Of a stretch of DNA of 64,000 bases, positions 1 through 38,464 are shown piece after piece; positions within the stretch are counted from its first letter, which is position 1; every line of letters begins with the position of its first letter. Location of the stretch: the sequence record NC_031103.1. One strand, 5' to 3'. The position numbers were made by a program, and so were the translations under genes. The stretch comes from Escherichia phage vB_EcoM-UFV13. The notes under the pieces are model-generated. The model worked only from the letters and a program-made list of their open reading frames with translations. It had not been told where the DNA came from and ran no database searches.

Positions 1-654
<654 letters not shown>

Positions 655-673
<19 letters not shown>

Positions 674-2494: not shown

Positions 2495-3088
2495 TTATTT
2501 CAGAGAATTAATATATTCCTGGACATCGGCAGAGGTGGTTTCAACCCCAGAAATATTGCCGTTAAAAGTTTCAACTCGAGCAAGGGTATCTTCAATATCA
2601 ACCTTAGTCAGTGCTGCAATTTCAACTACATCATCGGCAGTACTAATTCCAAGGGCATTTGCTGCACGAGTTTCACGGATATATTCCAATTTAACTGCAA
2701 GTTCTTGACGAGCATCATCTAACTCAACTACTTTCTTGGCGATTTCAATTCGCATTTCAGCATAACCGTCAGCTTTAGTAGTCAACTGCTCAGCTGTTCG
2801 ACGATATAGTAAACCAAGTTTAGCATGCATTGTTACATCTTGACCTTCAGAAAGAAGTTTACGAATTTCACGCTCTTTTGATTCGGCCTGTCGATTCTTT
2901 TCGATAACAAGTTCACGAATACGTTTTTCTTCATTAATAGATTTAACGGAAGCAGTTTTTAGATCTTTAATCTTATCAAGTAGTTTTGCTGCCGCAGCAG
3001 TATACTGTTCTTCAACAGATAGATTTTTAGCCATAGCAGAACCAAGTTTAGTGCGAATAAACTCAACAATTTTCTTCAGTGTATTCAT
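2495..3088 (-). CDS. Hypothetical coiled-coil protein (e.6-like)
   Basis: 197 aa ORF rich in K/E/L heptad-like sequence. Confidence 0.6.
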
Positions 3089-3145: not shown

Positions 3146-3481
3146 TTATTCTTCGTCTAGCTCGTCGATAAAGGCGTCGATGGCCTCGACAACGGCATCA
3201 TTGATAGCCAATAAAATAAAATCATCGTCAGTACCTTTAGAAGATTCTAAAGCATTGATATATGCTTGGTTGGCGAGTTCCCAAGCCTTTTTAAAATAAG
3301 GAGCTTCATCATCGGGGCCAACGAAACGTACGCCTTCAAAGATACGGTTAGCATAATCCAATACCCACTGTACAGGCATGTTTTGAGAACGTTCGTTAAA
3401 CTCTTTAAATTCCTTAGATTCAAAAAGCTCTTCAGGATAATCATTTCTATTACAAAAAGCTTTACTAAAGTTACGTTTCAT
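3146..3481 (-). CDS. Hypothetical acidic protein (e.7-like)
   Basis: 111 aa ORF. Confidence 0.6.
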   Translation of the reverse strand: MKRNFSKAFCNRNDYPEELFESKEFKEFNERSQNMPVQWVLDYANRIFEGVRFVGPDDEAPYFKKAWELANQAYINALESSKGTDDDFILLAINDAVVEAIDAFIDELDEE

Positions 3482-3525: not shown

Positions 3526-3690
3526 TTAGATGTAAACTATTTCAACATCGCCTTTTGCTGCTTTATAACCTTCAGCCCAAGATATAACCGAGTTTTTATC
3601 CGAAGATTCAAATTCTGGCATTGGGCTTTCGCCAATGTTCACGCAGTATGTTTCTTCATTTTCGTCAAACCAAATAATTAAAGTAGTCAT
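3526..3690 (-). CDS. Small hypothetical protein, about 54 aa, not in the ORF track (below size cutoff)
   Basis: ATG preceded by GGAGAAATAA Shine-Dalgarno (plus 3691-3700 ttatttctcc); reads MTTLIIWFDENEETYCVNIGESPMPEF... Confidence 0.35.
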   Translation of the reverse strand: MTTLIIWFDENEETYCVNIGESPMPEFESSDKNSVISWAEGYKAAKGDVEIVYI

Positions 3691-3759: not shown

Positions 3760-4023
3760 TTATTTCATATTATTGAAATATTCTTCTGCGATTTCATCGT
3801 TATCATGGTAAACTTTAGAAGACAGTTTAACATAACCTTCTGCTGTGAACATATTAATCACAACCTTTACAGTATACCACTGACCATCTTCATTACCCAT
3901 TACTGCGTAAGTTTCAAACATCGGATGATCAGGACCGATAACTTTAATATCATTCACCGTACGACCAAAATCTTCTGAAACACATTTCATAAAGAAGTTG
4001 AACAGTTCGCCGTAATTATCCAT
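3760..4023 (-). CDS. Hypothetical protein (e.8-like); start placed at internal ATG with SD
   Basis: Track ORF 3760..4152 begins at a TTG; internal ATG at 4021-4023 is preceded by GGAGAACGAA and gives MDNYGELFNFF... Confidence 0.5.
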   Translation of the reverse strand: MDNYGELFNFFMKCVSEDFGRTVNDIKVIGPDHPMFETYAVMGNEDGQWYTVKVVINMFTAEGYVKLSSKVYHDNDEIAEEYFNNMK

Positions 4024-4228
4024 TTCGTTCTCCAAGTTGTTTTCTGTATCAGTAGTTGATAGTTGTATAGTACCATGGAAGAACAGGGATGTAAACAGTT
4101 TTGTGAAAAATTTTTTAAAAAGTTTTGGGAATTCTAGGGCAGGGAGGGGCAATTAAAGGATAGGATAATATATTATAAAGGATAGAAACTAAATGATGCC
4201 TAGAGAGGCCCGGAAAGGCCTAGATGCC

Positions 4229-4253
4229 AAAAAGCCCTATCACTTAGATAGGG
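4229..4253 (-). terminator. Rho-independent terminator downstream of ORF 4262..4828
   Basis: minus strand: CCCTATC-TAAGT-GATAGGG hairpin followed by CTTTTT. Confidence 0.6.
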
Positions 4254-4261
4254 ATTTAAAA

Positions 4262-4828
4262 TTATTTACCTAGTTTAGTTATTATAGCTTCTGCGGCAGC
4301 TTTTAGCTTAGATGCGGTGTTAATACGATTTTTAATTTCAGTATACGCATCGCCAAGAACATCAAGGCTATCGGAATAAACACTTACACTATTGCGTTCG
4401 CTATTTGAAATAGAACCTTTAGTTTTACGATCAAAATCGGTGTACACGTCTTGAAGATCGCGGGCTGCCTTCTTTGCGTCATCCAATGCATCAAGAGCTT
4501 TATTCAAAGCATTAACGTATTTTTTAGTGTCGAACATATTCTTAGAAATTTTAACAGGTGCACGTTCAGGAGTAGCTAAGGCAGATTTAGGAAGAACCTG
4601 TTTGCCAGATGCCAGTTTCTTAGAAATTTTGAAAAACGCTTTATTGAAATTATTTTCTTGACTCATCGTAAAAGAACTATTATCAATGTTATACATTTCA
4701 ATAGCTTTAGCTTTCCACTTAAGAAAATCGCCACGGTCTTTTGGGTCCAAGTGGAAGAATACTTTAGTAAGATCTGCTTCAGATGGTAATTTTGCTGCTT
4801 CGGTTAAAAATTCGGCGTAGGTTTTCAT
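4262..4828 (-). CDS. Internal-protein-like capsid-packaged protein candidate with N-terminal capsid-targeting sequence
   Basis: 188 aa; N-terminus MKTYAEFLTEA resembles the T4 internal-protein CTS and contains a prohead-protease-type L-x-E site (LTE/A). Confidence 0.7.
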   Translation of the reverse strand: MKTYAEFLTEAAKLPSEADLTKVFFHLDPKDRGDFLKWKAKAIEMYNIDNSSFTMSQENNFNKAFFKISKKLASGKQVLPKSALATPERAPVKISKNMFDTKKYVNALNKALDALDDAKKAARDLQDVYTDFDRKTKGSISNSERNSVSVYSDSLDVLGDAYTEIKNRINTASKLKAAAEAIITKLGK

Positions 4829-4911
4829 TTAAAATCCTTGAAATAATTTATTGGTTATTAATTATTTATCACGTTGTTATATGTAACAGCATTCTCCGAG
4901 CGATTCAAACT

Positions 4912-4939
4912 AAAAAGCCCCAACCTTTCTGTCGGGGCT
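4912..4939 (-). terminator. Rho-independent terminator downstream of ORF 4947..5420
   Basis: minus strand AGCCCCGACAGAAAGGTTGGGGCT followed by TTTT; near-identical copy at 5466..5493. Confidence 0.65.
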
Positions 4940-4946
4940 AAAAATA

Positions 4947-5420
4947 TTATTTAATTTGCTTAGCAGACCAAATGCGGTCTTTAATAATTTTTTGGATGTC
5001 TTCAACATATTCAAGAGAGTGAACATGTGGGTTATCTTTGAAACTATAAGCACGAGCTAGCTTTTGGCCTTCAGTTTTGATTACTAAAAGCTCTTTAAGG
5101 ATAGCTTCATATTTGGAGATAATTCCTTTAACGATATTTTTCTCTTGTGTGACTTTAGGATCTGCTTTAGGAGCAGGTTTACCTGAAGCCTTTGCAAAAG
5201 CAGCNCCAGTAGCAACTAAACTTTTCCANGCCATACTAACAGCATTCCCCGTAAATCCTTCTGCTTTCATGTCGCGAGCAAATTGGAATCGTGATTCATC
5301 AGAAGCATCTTTATAGGAATATTTACCCGCGGCAATGGCNGCTTTTGCNACAGCTTGAATTTCAGTGCTAGATGCTTCATTTAACACCGCTTCATTTAAA
5401 AATTGAGCATATGATTTCAT
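4947..5420 (-). CDS. Internal-protein-like capsid-packaged protein candidate with CTS; paralogous N-terminus to ORF 4262..4828; contains ambiguous bases
   Basis: 157 aa; N-terminus MKSYAQFLNEA with LNE/A site; n at 5205, 5229, 5340, 5349. Confidence 0.65.
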   Translation of the reverse strand: MKSYAQFLNEAVLNEASSTEIQAXAKXAIAAGKYSYKDASDESRFQFARDMKAEGFTGNAVSMXWKSLVATXAAFAKASGKPAPKADPKVTQEKNIVKGIISKYEAILKELLVIKTEGQKLARAYSFKDNPHVHSLEYVEDIQKIIKDRIWSAKQIK

Positions 5421-5456
5421 CTTATTTCCTGTTTTAATTCGTGGTTTTAATATACT

Positions 5457-5464
5457 TATTTATA
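5457..5464 (-). promoter_or_regulatory. Late promoter box (TATAAATA on minus strand) upstream of ORF 4947..5420
   Basis: plus tatttata at 5457-5464; about 37 nt upstream of the ATG. Confidence 0.55.
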
Positions 5465-5465
5465 C

Positions 5466-5493
5466 TAAAAAGCCCCAACCTTTCGGCTGGGGC
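5466..5493 (-). terminator. Rho-independent terminator at the 3' end of the tRNA transcription unit
   Basis: minus strand AGCCCCAGCCGAAAGGTTGGGGCT followed by TTTTT. Confidence 0.65.
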
Positions 5494-5546
5494 TAAGCCT
5501 TGCGGCAACCTTGTCGGGGTTCCACCTGCTAAGGCAAGTGTTTGTA

Positions 5547-5637
5547 CGAAACGCCGGGATTCGAACCCGGTTATTAAGCAGTTGACGCTACTNAATATTT
5601 TTAAAAGGCCATATCTCGACCATATCCGAACGTTCCG
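5547..5637 (-). ncRNA. tRNA-like structured RNA (possible stable small RNA or pseudo-tRNA)
   Basis: 7-bp acceptor-like stem (CGGAACG/CGTTTCG) and canonical T-arm CCGGG-TTCGAAT-CCCGG but about 91 nt with no clear anticodon arm; contains n at 5593. Confidence 0.3.
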
Positions 5638-5810
5638 TCAAAAACGCTACTCGGCTTACGGCAAAGATATTTCCTCGAATCGATAATTCGGTGCGCCGTT
5701 TCTGCTGTGATGTAAGGGGGCATTAACCGATCGTAAAGATTTGTTAATGCCAGTCCTTACCCAGGGAACATCAGTCCGACGACTTACCGGTAGCGACCCG
5801 GCTTCTTGTT

Positions 5811-5886
5811 TGGTCGAGGCAGTAGGGATCGAACCTACGACCTAGGACTTAGAAGGTCCTTGCTCTTCCTTCTGAGCTATGCCTCG
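5811..5886 (-). tRNA. tRNA-Arg (anticodon UCU)
   Basis: Manual cloverleaf: acceptor CGAGGCA/TGCCTCG, anticodon loop CTTCTAA, T-arm GTAGG-TTCGATC-CCTAC, encoded CCA. Confidence 0.8.
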
Positions 5887-5890
5887 TATT

Positions 5891-5965
5891 TGGCGGACGT
5901 GATAGGATTCGAACCTATAACCAATCGCTTAACAGGCGATCGCTCTGCCATTGAGCTACACATCC
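5891..5965 (-). tRNA. tRNA-Asn (anticodon GUU)
   Basis: Manual cloverleaf: acceptor GGATGTG/CACGTCC, D-stem GCTC/GAGC, anticodon stem ATCGC/GCGAT with loop CTGTTAA, T-arm ATAGG-TTCGAAT-CCTAT, encoded CCA. Confidence 0.7.
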
Positions 5966-5969
5966 AAAT

Positions 5970-6056
5970 TGGTGGGGAGTGATGGAGTCGAACCACCCGA
6001 GTCGCAATGACAATGGATTTACAGTCCACACCGCTACCTCTACGGGATAACTCCCC
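5970..6056 (-). tRNA. tRNA-Tyr (anticodon GUA), class II with long variable arm
   Basis: 87 nt; acceptor GGGGAGT/ACTCCCC, anticodon loop CTGTAAA, variable-arm hairpin, encoded CCA; D-stem imperfect. Confidence 0.6.
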
Positions 6057-6068
6057 TAATTCATAATT

Positions 6069-6143
6069 TGGTGGCCCTGGGTGGAATTGAACCACCATCT
6101 GGCGATTATGAGTCGCTTGCTTGAACCTTCCAGCTACAGGGCC
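6069..6143 (-). tRNA. tRNA with CAU anticodon (Ile lysidine-type, as the T4 tRNA-Ile, or elongator Met)
   Basis: acceptor GGCCCTG/CAGGGCC, anticodon loop CTCATAA, T-arm GGTGG-TTCAATT-CCACC, encoded CCA. Confidence 0.75.
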
Positions 6144-6144
6144 T

Positions 6145-6220
6145 TGGTGCTGATTGACGGAATCGAACCGCCGACCTTCTCATTACAAGTGAGTTGCTCT
6201 ACCTACTGAGCTAAATCAGC
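6145..6220 (-). tRNA. tRNA-Thr (anticodon UGU)
   Basis: acceptor GCTGATT/AATCAGC, D-stem GCTC/GAGC, anticodon loop CTTGTAA, encoded CCA. Confidence 0.8.
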
Positions 6221-6225
6221 AAAAC

Positions 6226-6315
6226 TGGCGGAGGCGATAGGATTTGAACCTATGAGTCGCCGGAGCGACTGCCGGTTTTCAAGACCGGTGCATTAAACCA
6301 CTCTGCCACGCCTCC
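6226..6315 (-). tRNA. tRNA-Ser (anticodon UGA), class II
   Basis: 90 nt; acceptor GGAGGCG/CGCCTCC, anticodon stem CCGGT/ACCGG with loop CTTGAAA, long variable arm, encoded CCA. Confidence 0.8.
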
Positions 6316-6317
6316 AG

Positions 6318-6391
6318 TCTCCATACAAGGATTTGAACCTTGGACCTCCTGATCCCAAATCAGGCGCTCTACCAAACTGAGCTACACGGAG
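6318..6391 (-). tRNA. tRNA-Pro (anticodon UGG)
   Basis: acceptor CTCCGTG/TATGGAG (two G-U pairs), anticodon loop TTTGGGA, T-arm CAAGG-TTCAAAT-CCTTG; CCA not encoded. Confidence 0.75.
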
Positions 6392-6401
6392 TAAATTAAA
6401 T

Positions 6402-6475
<74 letters not shown>

Positions 6476-6480
6476 AAATT

Positions 6481-6567
6481 TGGTGCGAGAAGTGGGACTC
6501 GAACCCACAAGGAAATCATTCCGCAGCATTTTAAGTGCTGTGCCTTTACCAATTTGACCATTCTCGC
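6481..6567 (-). tRNA. tRNA-Leu (anticodon UAA), class II
   Basis: 87 nt; acceptor GCGAGAA/TTCTCGC, anticodon stem CAGCA/TGCTG with loop CTTAAAA, long variable arm, encoded CCA. Confidence 0.8.
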
Positions 6568-6568
6568 G

Positions 6569-6641
6569 CTGGGAATAAAGGACTCGAACCTTTGCATCCT
6601 GGAATCAAAATCCAGTGCCTTACCAACTTGGCTAATTCCCA
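6569..6641 (-). tRNA. tRNA-Gln (anticodon UUG)
   Basis: acceptor TGGGAAT/ATTCCCA, anticodon stem CTGGA/TCCAG with loop TTTTGAT; CCA not encoded. Confidence 0.75.
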
Positions 6642-7695: not shown

Positions 7696-7983
7696 TTACA
7701 AAAGATTTTTAGCAATAATCTTGAGATGTGCCGCAGAAATGTGTTTAGCTTTAAACAACGCAGTTTCTTCAGCAGGAGAGATAATGATTGTAGCACCATC
7801 CTTTTTAGCAGACCACCCATCACCTAGGTAAACAGTACCTTTGATTTCTTCGCCATCAACCAAACTAATCATTGGTTTACCTTCTCGTCCTTTATTTGCT
7901 TTAATAACTTCAGAAGTAAGAGTAGCTTCAGTAATAGTAGAAACCGGGGTAGTTGTAGAAGTAAATTCTTTGAAAGTTTTCAT
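7696..7983 (-). CDS. ipI: Internal protein I precursor
   Basis: 95 aa; N-terminus MKTFKEFTSTTTPVSTITE with ITE/A cleavage site that would leave a 76-residue mature protein; position between tRNAs and 57B as in T4. Confidence 0.8.
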   Translation of the reverse strand: MKTFKEFTSTTTPVSTITEATLTSEVIKANKGREGKPMISLVDGEEIKGTVYLGDGWSAKKDGATIIISPAEETALFKAKHISAAHLKIIAKNLL

Positions 7984-36561: not shown

Positions 36562-36986
36562 TGCTTCTGATCCCTGAAACTCATGAATTAGTTCTCGAGA
36601 ATGTCGAAGCACTTATTCCTGAAGCACAGGGTCGCTTTGACGAATTGTCTTCTGCTTTAAATAAAGACGATATAAATACAATTGTCGAGAATATGCTTGA
36701 TGATGAAACTGATTTAGCGATTGCATTAGCTTCTATTAATGAAAACATGCCGTTAAATGAATTTATCGTTAAACATGTTTCTGCCCGTGGTGAAATTACT
36801 CGCACTAAAGATCGCAAAACCCGCGAACGAAATGCATTTCAAACCACTGGGCTGTCTAAAGCAAAACGTAGACAAATTGCTCGCAAAGCTACCAAAACGA
36901 AGATTGCCAATCCAGCAGGTCAATCTCGTGCTCAGCGTAAGCGTAAAAAAGCTCTTAAACGCCGTAAAGCATTAGGATTAAGCTAA
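36561..36986 (+). CDS. 68: Prohead core protein
   Basis: 141 aa; basic C-terminus. Confidence 0.8.
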
Positions 36987-37624
36987 TGAATGAACCCCAA
37001 TTACTAATTGAAACTTGGGGTCAACCTGGCGAAATTATTGATGGTGTGCCAATGCTCGAATCCCACGATGGAAAAGACTTAGGTTTAAAACCTGGTTTAT
37101 ACATCGAAGGAATATTCATGCAAGCAGAAGTCGTCAATAGAAATAAACGTCTTTATCCAAAACGCATATTAGAAAAAGCGGTAAAAGACTATATTAATGA
37201 GCAAGTTTTAACTAAACAAGCTCTCGGAGAATTAAATCATCCTCCACGCGCTAATGTTGACCCAATGCAAGCCGCTATCATTATAGAAGATATGTGGTGG
37301 AAAGGAAATGACGTATACGGACGAGCTCGTGTTATTGAAGGTGACCATGGTCCTGGAGATAAATTAGCAGCTAATATTCGTGCCGGATGGATTCCAGGAG
37401 TTTCTTCTCGTGGATTAGGTTCATTGACTGACACAAATAAAGGTTATCGTATCGTAAACGAAGGATTCAAATTAACTGTAGGTGTTGATGCAGTATGGGG
37501 TCCAAGTGCTCCAGATGCATGGGTAACTCCTAAGGAAATTACCGAATCACAGACGGCGGAAGCCGATACAAGTGCCGATGACGCCTATATGGCTCTCGCA
37601 GAGGCCATGAAAAAAGCGTTATAA
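36986..37624 (+). CDS. 21: Prohead core protease
   Basis: 212 aa; position between 68 and 22. Confidence 0.9.
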   Translation: MNEPQLLIETWGQPGEIIDGVPMLESHDGKDLGLKPGLYIEGIFMQAEVVNRNKRLYPKRILEKAVKDYINEQVLTKQALGELNHPPRANVDPMQAAIIIEDMWWKGNDVYGRARVIEGDHGPGDKLAANIRAGWIPGVSSRGLGSLTDTNKGYRIVNEGFKLTVGVDAVWGPSAPDAWVTPKEITESQTAEADTSADDAYMALAEAMKKAL

Positions 37625-37654: not shown

Positions 37655-38464
37655 ATGCTTAAAGAACAACTGATTGCCGAAGCGCAGAAAATTGATGCTT
37701 CCGTTGCTCTTGATAGTATTTTCGAATCAGTTAATATTTCTCCGGAAGCAAAAGAAACTTTCGGCACTGTATTCGAAGCTACCGTCAAGCAGCACGCCGT
37801 TAAATTAGCTGAATCTCATATCGCTAAAATTGCTGAAAAAGCAGAAGAAGAAGTAGAAAAAAATAAAGAAGAAGCAGAAGAAAAAGCTGAGAAGAAAATC
37901 GCTGAGCAAGCTTCTAAATTCATTGACCATCTTGCGAAAGAATGGCTCGCTGAAAATAAATTAGCAGTTGATAAAGGCATCAAAGCCGAACTGTTTGAAT
38001 CCATGCTTGGTGGATTAAAAGAGCTCTTTGTTGAACACAACGTTGTTGTTCCAGAAGAATCAGTTGATGTTGTAGCTGAAATGGAAGAAGAGCTGCAAGA
38101 ACATAAAGAAGAATCAGCTCGTCTGTTCGAAGAACTCAATATGCGCGACGCATATATCAATTATGTGCAGCGTGAAGTGGCATTGAGCGAAAGTACTAAA
38201 GATCTGACTGAGTCTCAAAAAGAAAAAGTCTCTGCTCTGGTCGAAGGTATGGATTATTCAGATGAATTCTCAAGTAAATTGAGTGCCATCGTAGAAATGG
38301 TGAAGAAGTCTAATAAAGATGAAAGCACTATTACTGAGGGTATAAATACTCCTGATACTGAAGCAGCCGGACTGAATTTCGTCACTGAAGCTGTAGAAGA
38401 TAAATCTGCATCTGGTGCAGAAGATATTGTAAGTGTATATGCGAAAGTCGCATCTCGTTTCTAA
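37655..38464 (+). CDS. 22: Prohead scaffolding core protein
   Basis: 269 aa; highly charged, E/K-rich helical sequence. Confidence 0.9.
   Translation: MLKEQLIAEAQKIDASVALDSIFESVNISPEAKETFGTVFEATVKQHAVKLAESHIAKIAEKAEEEVEKNKEEAEEKAEKKIAEQASKFIDHLAKEWLAENKLAVDKGIKAELFESMLGGLKELFVEHNVVVPEESVDVVAEMEEELQEHKEESARLFEELNMRDAYINYVQREVALSESTKDLTESQKEKVSALVEGMDYSDEFSSKLSAIVEMVKKSNKDESTITEGINTPDTEAAGLNFVTEAVEDKSASGAEDIVSVYAKVASRF
38341..38348 (+). promoter_or_regulatory. Late promoter box TATAAATA inside the 3' part of gene 22, candidate promoter for gene 23
   Basis: exact match 135 nt upstream of the gene 23 ATG. Confidence 0.5.

Follow-up and report, generated by a model that had tools for sequence, protein, structure and literature searches.

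Two adjacent open reading frames (ORFs) of Escherichia phage vB_EcoM-UFV13 (NC_031103.1), here named ORF1 and ORF2, probably encode internal head proteins of a T4-like phage that were not previously labelled as such; for this reading, including the mechanism proposed below, we estimate a probability of about 0.65. The stretch of DNA analysed, hereafter the window, comprises 64,000 nt, and both genes lie on its minus strand at the junction between the stable RNA gene rnaC and gene e.8 (Table 1). Each begins with a ten-residue leader like that of the T4 internal proteins, each is bordered by terminator-type hairpins, and each is naturally present in some related phages and absent from others. 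Packaging into the virion is probable for both proteins, and somewhat more so for ORF2, whose homologue has been reported in purified particles of a Yersinia phage. Internal proteins as a kind are well known; this family and this genome position have not been labelled so before.

Two genes under purifying selection

ORF1 and ORF2 were confirmed at the coordinates, on the strand and with the starts (MKTYAEFLTEA and MKSYAQFLNEA) given in a first-pass annotation of the DNA. No competing long ORF was found on either strand over the region, and the ORF lengths, the ribosome-binding sites and the position are conserved among related phages. Among natural alleles, six of ORF1 and eight of ORF2, the ratio of nonsynonymous to synonymous polymorphism (pN/pS) was 0.03–0.19 for all but one pair, and the outlier was a near-identical pair with three differences only. 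Both ORFs are real genes and are under strong purifying selection. Their products, all of them named 'hypothetical protein' in database records, are free of Cys and have an isoelectric point (pI) of 9.4–9.5, as found for IPII and IPIII. A pairwise BLASTP alignment of the two proteins was limited to the first 11 residues, in agreement with the earlier description of two unrelated bodies behind similar N-termini.

The capsid-targeting leader

In the six-frame translation of the window, the motif MK[TS][YF].[EQDK]F occurs three times, at the starts of ipI, ORF1 and ORF2, against a rough chance expectation of ~0.02 occurrences. The first-pass annotation had likened both leaders to that of ipI; the shared motif bears this out, but the match to T4 IPII and IPIII, which both start MKTYQEFIAEA, is closer than that to IPI. 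According to the mutagenesis of Mullaney & Black, summarised in PMC9026906, the first ten residues of IPIII suffice for head loading, with residues 4 and 7 responsible for targeting and residues 8 and 10 for processing by the prohead protease gp21, which cuts after L/I-x-E. Both leaders keep Y4, F7, L8 and E10 as well as the following Ala, as in IPII and IPIII. The aromatic residue at position 4 and the Phe at position 7 (MKTYAEF and MKSYAQF) are kept across both subfamilies, and positions 8–10 followed by a small residue read LTE-Ala in ORF1 and LNE-Ala in ORF2, the predicted gp21 sites. The proposals of capsid-targeting N-termini and of an L-x-E site after about 10 residues therefore stand, both on these four experimentally mapped IPIII positions and on the persistence of the leader in distant homologues.

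Beyond the leader, [LI]xE sites are few: ORF1 has no other, and ORF2 has LNE at 13–15 in addition to that at 8–10, plus one internal LKE. With so few further sites both proteins would survive gp21 essentially intact, as do the internal proteins IPII and IPIII and unlike the scaffold. The predicted mature ORF1 protein would start at Ala11 (AAKLPSEADLTK) and that of ORF2 with AVLNEASS. The leader is kept as a peptide at the same time as its codons vary (ACA/ACC/ACT, TAT/TAC, TTT/TTC and TTA/TTG/ATT/ATC). It persists in ORF1 relatives of only 17–31% identity, all of which keep E10 and most of which have a second site, I-T-E-A, behind the leader. Both gp21 and the scaffolding protein gp22 are encoded by the same phage.

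Reported association of an ORF2 homologue with virions

Yersinia phage fD1 carries ORF2 alone at the junction, as g140, with 98% identity. In the liquid chromatography–tandem mass spectrometry of purified fD1 particles, Gp140 was particle-associated at the stricter threshold, at which its neighbours g138 and g139 (e.8) were not listed (PMC8309999, Table S3; public data set PXD026812). This listing is supportive but not decisive for the packaging of ORF2; the N-terminus of Gp140 was not mapped. Together with the leader positions and the presence of gp21 and gp22, it makes probable the packaging that the first-pass annotation had suggested for these internal-protein-like candidates. A literature search by leader strings and by the ORF names of RB14 and RB69 returned nothing on these genes, one by the names Ip5–Ip10 returned unrelated papers only, and the papers on fPS-65/fPS-90 and fGh-Ecl01 contain no proteomics.

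Other products of the fD1 particle list are encoded nearby or resemble ORF2 in size. The e.6 homologue of the window (2495–3088, minus strand) has 197 residues and no Pfam match, and its fD1 counterpart g137 is also particle-associated, as is g136, the counterpart of e.5. Ip4, a protein of 157 residues with the leader MKTYQEFITEAA that is unrelated to ORF2, is encoded by fD1 g129 (contig L005, 786–1259) and by ip4 of T2 (contig L020, 4437–4910). In fD1 its gene is located downstream of denV and not between denV and e, and the product is a listed head protein.

Terminator-bordered cassettes at the rnaC/e.8 junction

Transcription of this region runs from high to low coordinates, and the order on the minus strand is rnaC, hairpin 1, a late-promoter box TATAAATA, ORF2, hairpin 2, ORF1, hairpin 3, the e.8 promoter and e.8. 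Hairpin 1 (AGCCCCAGCCGAAAGGTTGGGGCT plus a T-tract; fold −20.6 kcal/mol, z −3.5) aligns to the rnaD-rnaC region of T4 together with the single T4 terminator. Hairpin 2 is nearly identical (−16.3 kcal/mol, z −3.8), and both are contained in a direct repeat, D1, of 39 nt with 87% identity. Hairpin 3 (CCCTATCTAAGTGATAGGG plus CTTTTT) has a different stem, and the DNA past it corresponds to the T4 sequence that comes after the single T4 terminator.

This layout changes the one initially proposed, in which each gene formed its own unit followed by a near-identical terminator. Both of the hairpins then described are real, as judged from their folds and the 87% repeat, but given the direction of transcription hairpin 1 precedes ORF2, and the near-identical pair brackets that one gene. 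Hairpin 1 is the rnaC terminator, also present in T4, and ORF1 ends in the different hairpin 3. The late-type box reported upstream of ORF2 was confirmed as an exact TATAAATA; it stands right after the T-tract of hairpin 1 and 36 nt upstream of the ATG, at the same place as in RB68 and G50. In the window TATAAATA has 24 copies against 9.6 expected, mostly just upstream of late genes. No exact copy was found upstream of ORF1, where GATAAATA, a 7/8 match with the counterpart AATAAATA in G50, is a candidate. A scan for sigma-70 promoters detected no early promoter upstream of either ORF. A MotA-box middle promoter for ORF1, suggested by a TGCTGT, was rejected by eye because no properly spaced −10 accompanies it and the spacing varies in G50 and RB14.

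The cassette DNA is 94–97% identical to many Tequatrovirus genomes from Escherichia, Shigella and Yersinia hosts. In T4 there is no gene between rnaC and e.8 and only one terminator, and the junction is likewise empty in T2 and T6, which have neither gene. Compared with T4 the window has an insertion, with its left edge in the T-tract of the T4 terminator and its right edge in that of hairpin 3. At this junction RB68 carries only ORF2, and the GGGGC-type hairpin behind it abuts the T4-like flank; RB14 carries only ORF1, whose upstream sequence abuts the rnaC terminator; and both genes occur in the window, in G50, in Phaginator and in further phages. With junctions located in hairpins or T-tracts, these four configurations differ by whole promoter-ORF-terminator units, the pattern that recombination between repeated hairpins would produce. 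The locus was earlier taken for one known to be hyperplastic among T-even phages; the site is, however, neither of the two classical hyperplastic internal-protein loci, 57B-trna.4 and denV-e, but the rnaC/e.8 junction.

Exchange of the ORF1 cassette appears to be recent. Contig L011 (3501–4654) is a mosaic, with 97% identity to the window in ORF1, 75% in the adjacent ORF2, 94% in e.8 and 88% in e.6. RB69 (NC_004928.1, 73431–73990) has an ORF1 homologue of 97% identity, split into two annotated ORFs (148c/149c); the split reflects either a pseudogene with a frameshift or an error in sequencing, and the RB69 genome is otherwise much more divergent from T4-type phages. The mosaic contig and the RB69 copy indicate that the ORF1 cassette has moved laterally of late.

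The slot also takes cassettes that do not encode internal proteins. In the Mosigvirus-like contig L010 (3998–4573; spacing in L013 is similar), an unrelated ORF of ~190 residues lies between the ORF2 homologue and e.8; its product resembles a membrane protein and is leaderless, with TTG or a nearby ATG as the start codon.

A predicted helical protein family of T4-like phages

ORF1 was found in 163 phage records, nearly all at 95–100% identity, and ORF2 in 510, down to 72–75% identity in Mosigvirus-like phages; the N-terminal half of ORF2 recurs in Klebsiella and Yersinia T4-like phages. The neighbouring gene e.8 has 595 records; ORF2 is thus common among phages with e.8, and its absence from the model phages is exceptional. 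When ORF1 served as the query of an exhaustive HMMER search, one distant relative, P0027, with 31% identity, was recovered; this led to a wider family in T4-like phages of Enterobacter, Cronobacter, Klebsiella, Erwinia and Aeromonas. The relative in Karamvirus PG7 occupies the same slot, between tRNA genes and e.8, and the relatives in Mosigvirus-like contigs share it too.

ORF1, ORF2 and every relative tested belong to phrog_2280 ('unknown function') of the PHROGs database, in which IPI, IPII, IPIII and Ip4–Ip7 each have a PHROG of their own, labelled internal virion or head protein. The protein search against T-even internal protein families that had been suggested from the DNA was run by BLASTP with the leaderless bodies against IPI, IPII, IPIII and Ip4–Ip7 and gave nothing significant; by sequence, membership of these named families is excluded. 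Pfam returned sub-threshold noise only, such as Cytochrome b562 (17.7 bits, cutoff 30), and neither NCBIfam, PADLOC nor sequence and profile searches of the PDB matched ORF1 or ORF2.

In the alignments, both subfamilies present a common plan of leader, conserved helical N-domain, variable-length Pro/Ala/Lys-rich linker and differing C-terminal helical regions. The AlphaFold models agree with it: the leader is unstructured and precedes three or four short helices, after which a disordered linker leads to a long helical hairpin. Mean pLDDT (predicted local distance difference test) was 73 for ORF2 and 60 for ORF1, the latter model being too weak for a structure search. In ORF2 the N-domain is small and the linker Pro/Lys-rich; ORF1 has a disordered, Pro-rich linker before its long C-terminal hairpin. 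Whether the two genes are paralogous, as the first-pass annotation stated, was judged at several depths. Pairwise BLASTP and a shallow profile comparison were negative, and BLASTP of ORF1 against P0021 and P0022, Klebsiella/Yersinia proteins with the ORF2 N-domain, gave nothing significant. The common PHROG and a profile-profile comparison of the subfamilies, with 75% probability and E=2.5e-5 over 49 columns of the C-terminal hairpin, make a distant paralogy plausible, not established.

Two chimeric predicted proteins carry parts of ORF2. In P0025 (94 residues) a trna.3-like N-terminus is fused to the C-terminal ~28 residues of ORF2, the arrangement that loss of the entire tRNA region would leave; in P0024 (182 residues) an ORF2-type N-domain is fused to unrelated sequence. 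These may be natural deletions or assembly artefacts.

Proposed function and alternative explanations

We propose that both genes are expressed late, ORF2 from its canonical late promoter, and that the ten-residue N-terminal sequence would dock each protein on the gp22 scaffolding core of the prohead. There gp21 would cut after Glu10 (L-x-E before Ala), and in ORF2 probably after Glu15 too. The basic mature proteins, of about 19.8 kDa (ORF1) and 16 kDa (ORF2), would remain in the head with the DNA and be ejected with it into the next host. Once injected, by analogy with all internal proteins of known function, they might switch off a host nuclease directed against modified T-even DNA; type IV restriction enzymes of the GmrSD or McrBC type are examples. 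Each gene would act as a self-contained cassette of promoter, ribosome-binding site, ORF and terminator at the rnaC/e.8 junction, gained and lost by recombination inside the terminator hairpins.

The anti-restriction step is a tentative one, possible with the odds somewhat against it. The proposal of a target is pure analogy, since no fold or database match was obtained. The analogy is with Ip1, Ip2 and Ip3, each of which blocks a distinct GmrSD-type type IV variant (PMC12373910), with IPIII, which is required on ECOR17 (bioRxiv 10.1101/2022.04.14.488369), and with Bas37_0260, which was recognised by its leader alone and inhibits McrBC (bioRxiv 10.1101/2025.11.20.689424).

Several points weigh against internal head proteins of this kind. 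ORF1 has a 7/8 late box only and no recognisable sigma-70 or MotA promoter, and no proteomic data for it were found in the literature. The presence of Gp140 in fD1 is weak evidence, because the particle list takes in 113 of 277 gene products, including non-structural enzymes such as DenV, lysozyme e and NudE (PMC8309999). The all-helical models gave no informative fold match, in addition to the absence of Pfam, NCBIfam, PADLOC and PDB matches. Finally, strong purifying selection and the same slot across genera of Tevenvirinae fit a conserved housekeeping accessory better than an arms-race effector.

This last point leads to the main rival explanation, a role in DNA packing or head assembly, in which the proteins are packaged through the leader and act inside the head as DNA-binding, charge-neutralising or minor core proteins in assembly, condensation or ejection. 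The basic character, the Pro/Ala/Lys-rich linker and the long helical hairpins of the proteins would suit such a role, as would the low pN/pS, the occupation of this slot in Tequatrovirus, Mosigvirus-like and Karamvirus genomes alike, and the frequency of ORF2 (510 records against 595 with e.8). However, the heads of T2, T4 and T6 are normal without either gene, and RB14 and RB68 are each without one. Moreover, all leader-bearing internal proteins of known function are anti-restriction factors, and the C-terminal domains are swapped among relatives, which is more typical of target-specific modules. We regard this role as unlikely.

It is more improbable still that the proteins are not packaged, being ordinary cytoplasmic late proteins whose common 5′ end results from cassette recombination or favourable translation initiation. 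The two genes do share a direct repeat, D2, over their first 42 nt including the ribosome-binding site (74% identity), no virion support was found for ORF1 and the fD1 list is unspecific. Against this, the leader is kept as a peptide despite synonymous differences, it persists at 17–31% identity, and precisely the four functionally mapped positions are kept; in fD1, the ORF2 homologue passed the stricter threshold and its neighbours g138 and g139 did not. That the ORFs are chance frames in a spacer, with the RNA hairpins alone functional, could be read from the uniform 'hypothetical protein' label, but is effectively refuted by the pN/pS values over many pairs, and further by the conserved lengths and ribosome-binding sites, the strong full-length PHROG match, the detected peptides of the fD1 homologue and an Rfam scan of 4000–6000 that found tRNAs only and no family in the cassette.

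The packaged, injected proteins that we favour may also be placed in a wider scheme, which we consider doubtful. phrog_2280 would be an ancestral modular family of injected proteins at a third internal-protein locus (tRNA/rnaC-e.8) throughout Tevenvirinae. Its members would be built from leader, helical 'chassis', Pro/Ala/Lys linker and an exchangeable helical-hairpin 'warhead' that chooses the host defence nuclease to be blocked. Recombination between terminator repeats would have removed the family from T2, T4 and T6, and a loss from these classical model phages would explain why phrog_2280 was never characterised.

Comparison with known systems

Like IPI, IPII and IPIII of T4, ORF1 and ORF2 present a leader of 10–11 residues (MKTYQEFIAEA in T4) with an L/I-x-E gp21 site before Ala, here a predicted one. 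They also resemble them in being small, basic, Cys-free, non-essential and variably present, with mutually unrelated bodies. They differ in having no body similarity to the T4 proteins (phrog_2280 here, against 4363, 7857 and 5341) and in their locus, rnaC/e.8; packaging and cleavage are predicted here from the leader, and the target is proposed by analogy.

Repoila et al. 1994 (EMBO J 13:4181; cited in PMC12373910 and PMC3012670) are said to have described polymorphic T-even internal proteins, Ip4–Ip7 and others. Those genes are, like ORF1 and ORF2, leader-bearing ORFs in present/absent cassettes with repeated flanks that could mediate shuffling. Unlike ORF1 and ORF2, they are located at 57B-trna.4 and denV-e, and have at their flanks an early promoter (GTTTACA...TACTAT) that overlaps an inverted repeat. 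The flanks of ORF1 and ORF2 are intrinsic-terminator hairpins, with a late promoter for ORF2 and no sigma-70-like promoter.

The borders are also similar to PeSL/PmSL elements (Arbiol 2010; Comeau, Arbiol & Krisch 2014, PMC4122927), in which a stem-loop and a promoter border variable genes, indels between related phages map to the motifs, and tandem copies could excise the intervening DNA. A repeated stem-loop motif was found at both borders of ORF2, with the indel junctions inside the motif, but the associated promoter is of the late type (TATAAATA) where PeSL/PmSL elements have an early or middle one, there are three hairpins only, and recombination is inferred from the four natural configurations. 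As for Bas37_0260, which we compared by description only, it is likewise a newly recognised internal protein defined by its leader alone and missing from T4, but it is encoded at the ipI locus and has a demonstrated target, McrBC.

Since 2025, all three T4 internal proteins and one Bas37 protein have each been identified as a specific inhibitor of type IV restriction enzymes, and such proteins are recognisable by the leader only. As far as we could find, the present family, leader-bearing and common among T4-like phages, has been neither labelled nor tested as an internal protein. It offers two ready candidates for new anti-defence functions and for host-range determinants in therapeutic T4-like phages, with natural zero-, one- and two-gene variants available for comparison. 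The rnaC/e.8 junction would be a third exchange site for such cassettes, with borders of terminator and late promoter.

Genomic context

Table 1. Features at the rnaC/e.8 junction and elsewhere in the window; positions are those of the 64,000-nt stretch.
Feature	Position	Strand	Remarks
ORF1	4262..4828	(-)	188 aa; basic, pI about 9.4; no Cys
ORF2	4947..5420	(-)	157 aa; basic, pI about 9.4; no Cys; four codons with N
ORF1 capsid-targeting sequence	4799..4828	(-)	MKTYAEFLTE, codons 1-10; sole [LI]xE site of the protein, then Ala
ORF2 capsid-targeting sequence	5391..5420	(-)	MKSYAQFLNE, codons 1-10; predicted gp21 cleavage after E10
ORF2 second LNE-Ala site	5376-5384	(-)	codons 13-15
ORF2 Shine-Dalgarno sequence	5425..5430	(-)	AGGAAA; read from sequence; conserved in RB68 and G50
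Late-promoter box for ORF2	5457..5464	(-)	TATAAATA, exact match; right after hairpin 1 T-tract
Candidate late box upstream of ORF1	4863..4870	(-)	GATAAATA, 7/8 match
Hairpin 1	5471..5494	(-)	rnaC 3′ end/terminator; upstream border of the cassette array
Hairpin 2	4916..4939	(-)	downstream of ORF2, upstream of ORF1
Hairpin 3	4235..4253	(-)	downstream of ORF1; different stem
rnaD and rnaC stable RNAs	about 5520-5810	(-)	~93% identity to T4
Ten tRNA genes	5811-6641	(-)	
ipI	7696..7983	(-)	leader reference; sole annotated-type internal protein in the window; Pfam IPI_T4 E=2e-53; phrog_4363
e.8	3760-4023	(-)	
nudE	218-673	(-)	
gp21 prohead protease	36986..37624	(+)	enzyme expected to remove the leaders; Pfam Peptidase_S77 E=1.5e-111
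gp22 scaffold	37655-38464		adjoins the gp21 gene; T4_CASP E=1.7e-89

The gene order of T4 is kept on the minus strand of the window, with gene 1, 57A, 57B, ipI, trna.4/.3/.2, the tRNAs, rnaD and rnaC. Beyond rnaC come ORF2 and ORF1, then e.8, and the strand continues on to nudE.

The window has 15 ambiguous bases (N), at 1224, 1487, 1532, 1549, 1583, 1589, 5205, 5229, 5340, 5349, 5593, 17763, 17769, 17859 and 17886. Four of them fall within ORF2, where they give X residues, and several within membrane-protein ORFs of the e.3/e.4 type. The window is a draft or consensus sequence.

The tRNA genes of the window are those for Arg, Asn, Tyr, Met-CAT, Thr, Ser, Pro, Gly, Leu and Gln, without the homing endonuclease gene segB. 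In T4 there are eight tRNAs and an inserted segB, G50 carries tRNA-His in addition, and in RB68 a homing endonuclease replaces tRNA-Pro. Between e.8 and e.6 the window has both a 54-residue RB14ncORF134c-type gene (3526–3690, minus strand) and an e.7-type gene (3146–3481, minus strand). The former alone is present in RB14, G50 and fD1 and e.7 alone in T4 and T6, another small presence/absence polymorphism. Just downstream of nudE, two TATAAATA boxes stand 13 nt apart (194–201 and 207–214, minus strand), presumably as tandem late promoters for the lysozyme gene e beyond the edge of the window.

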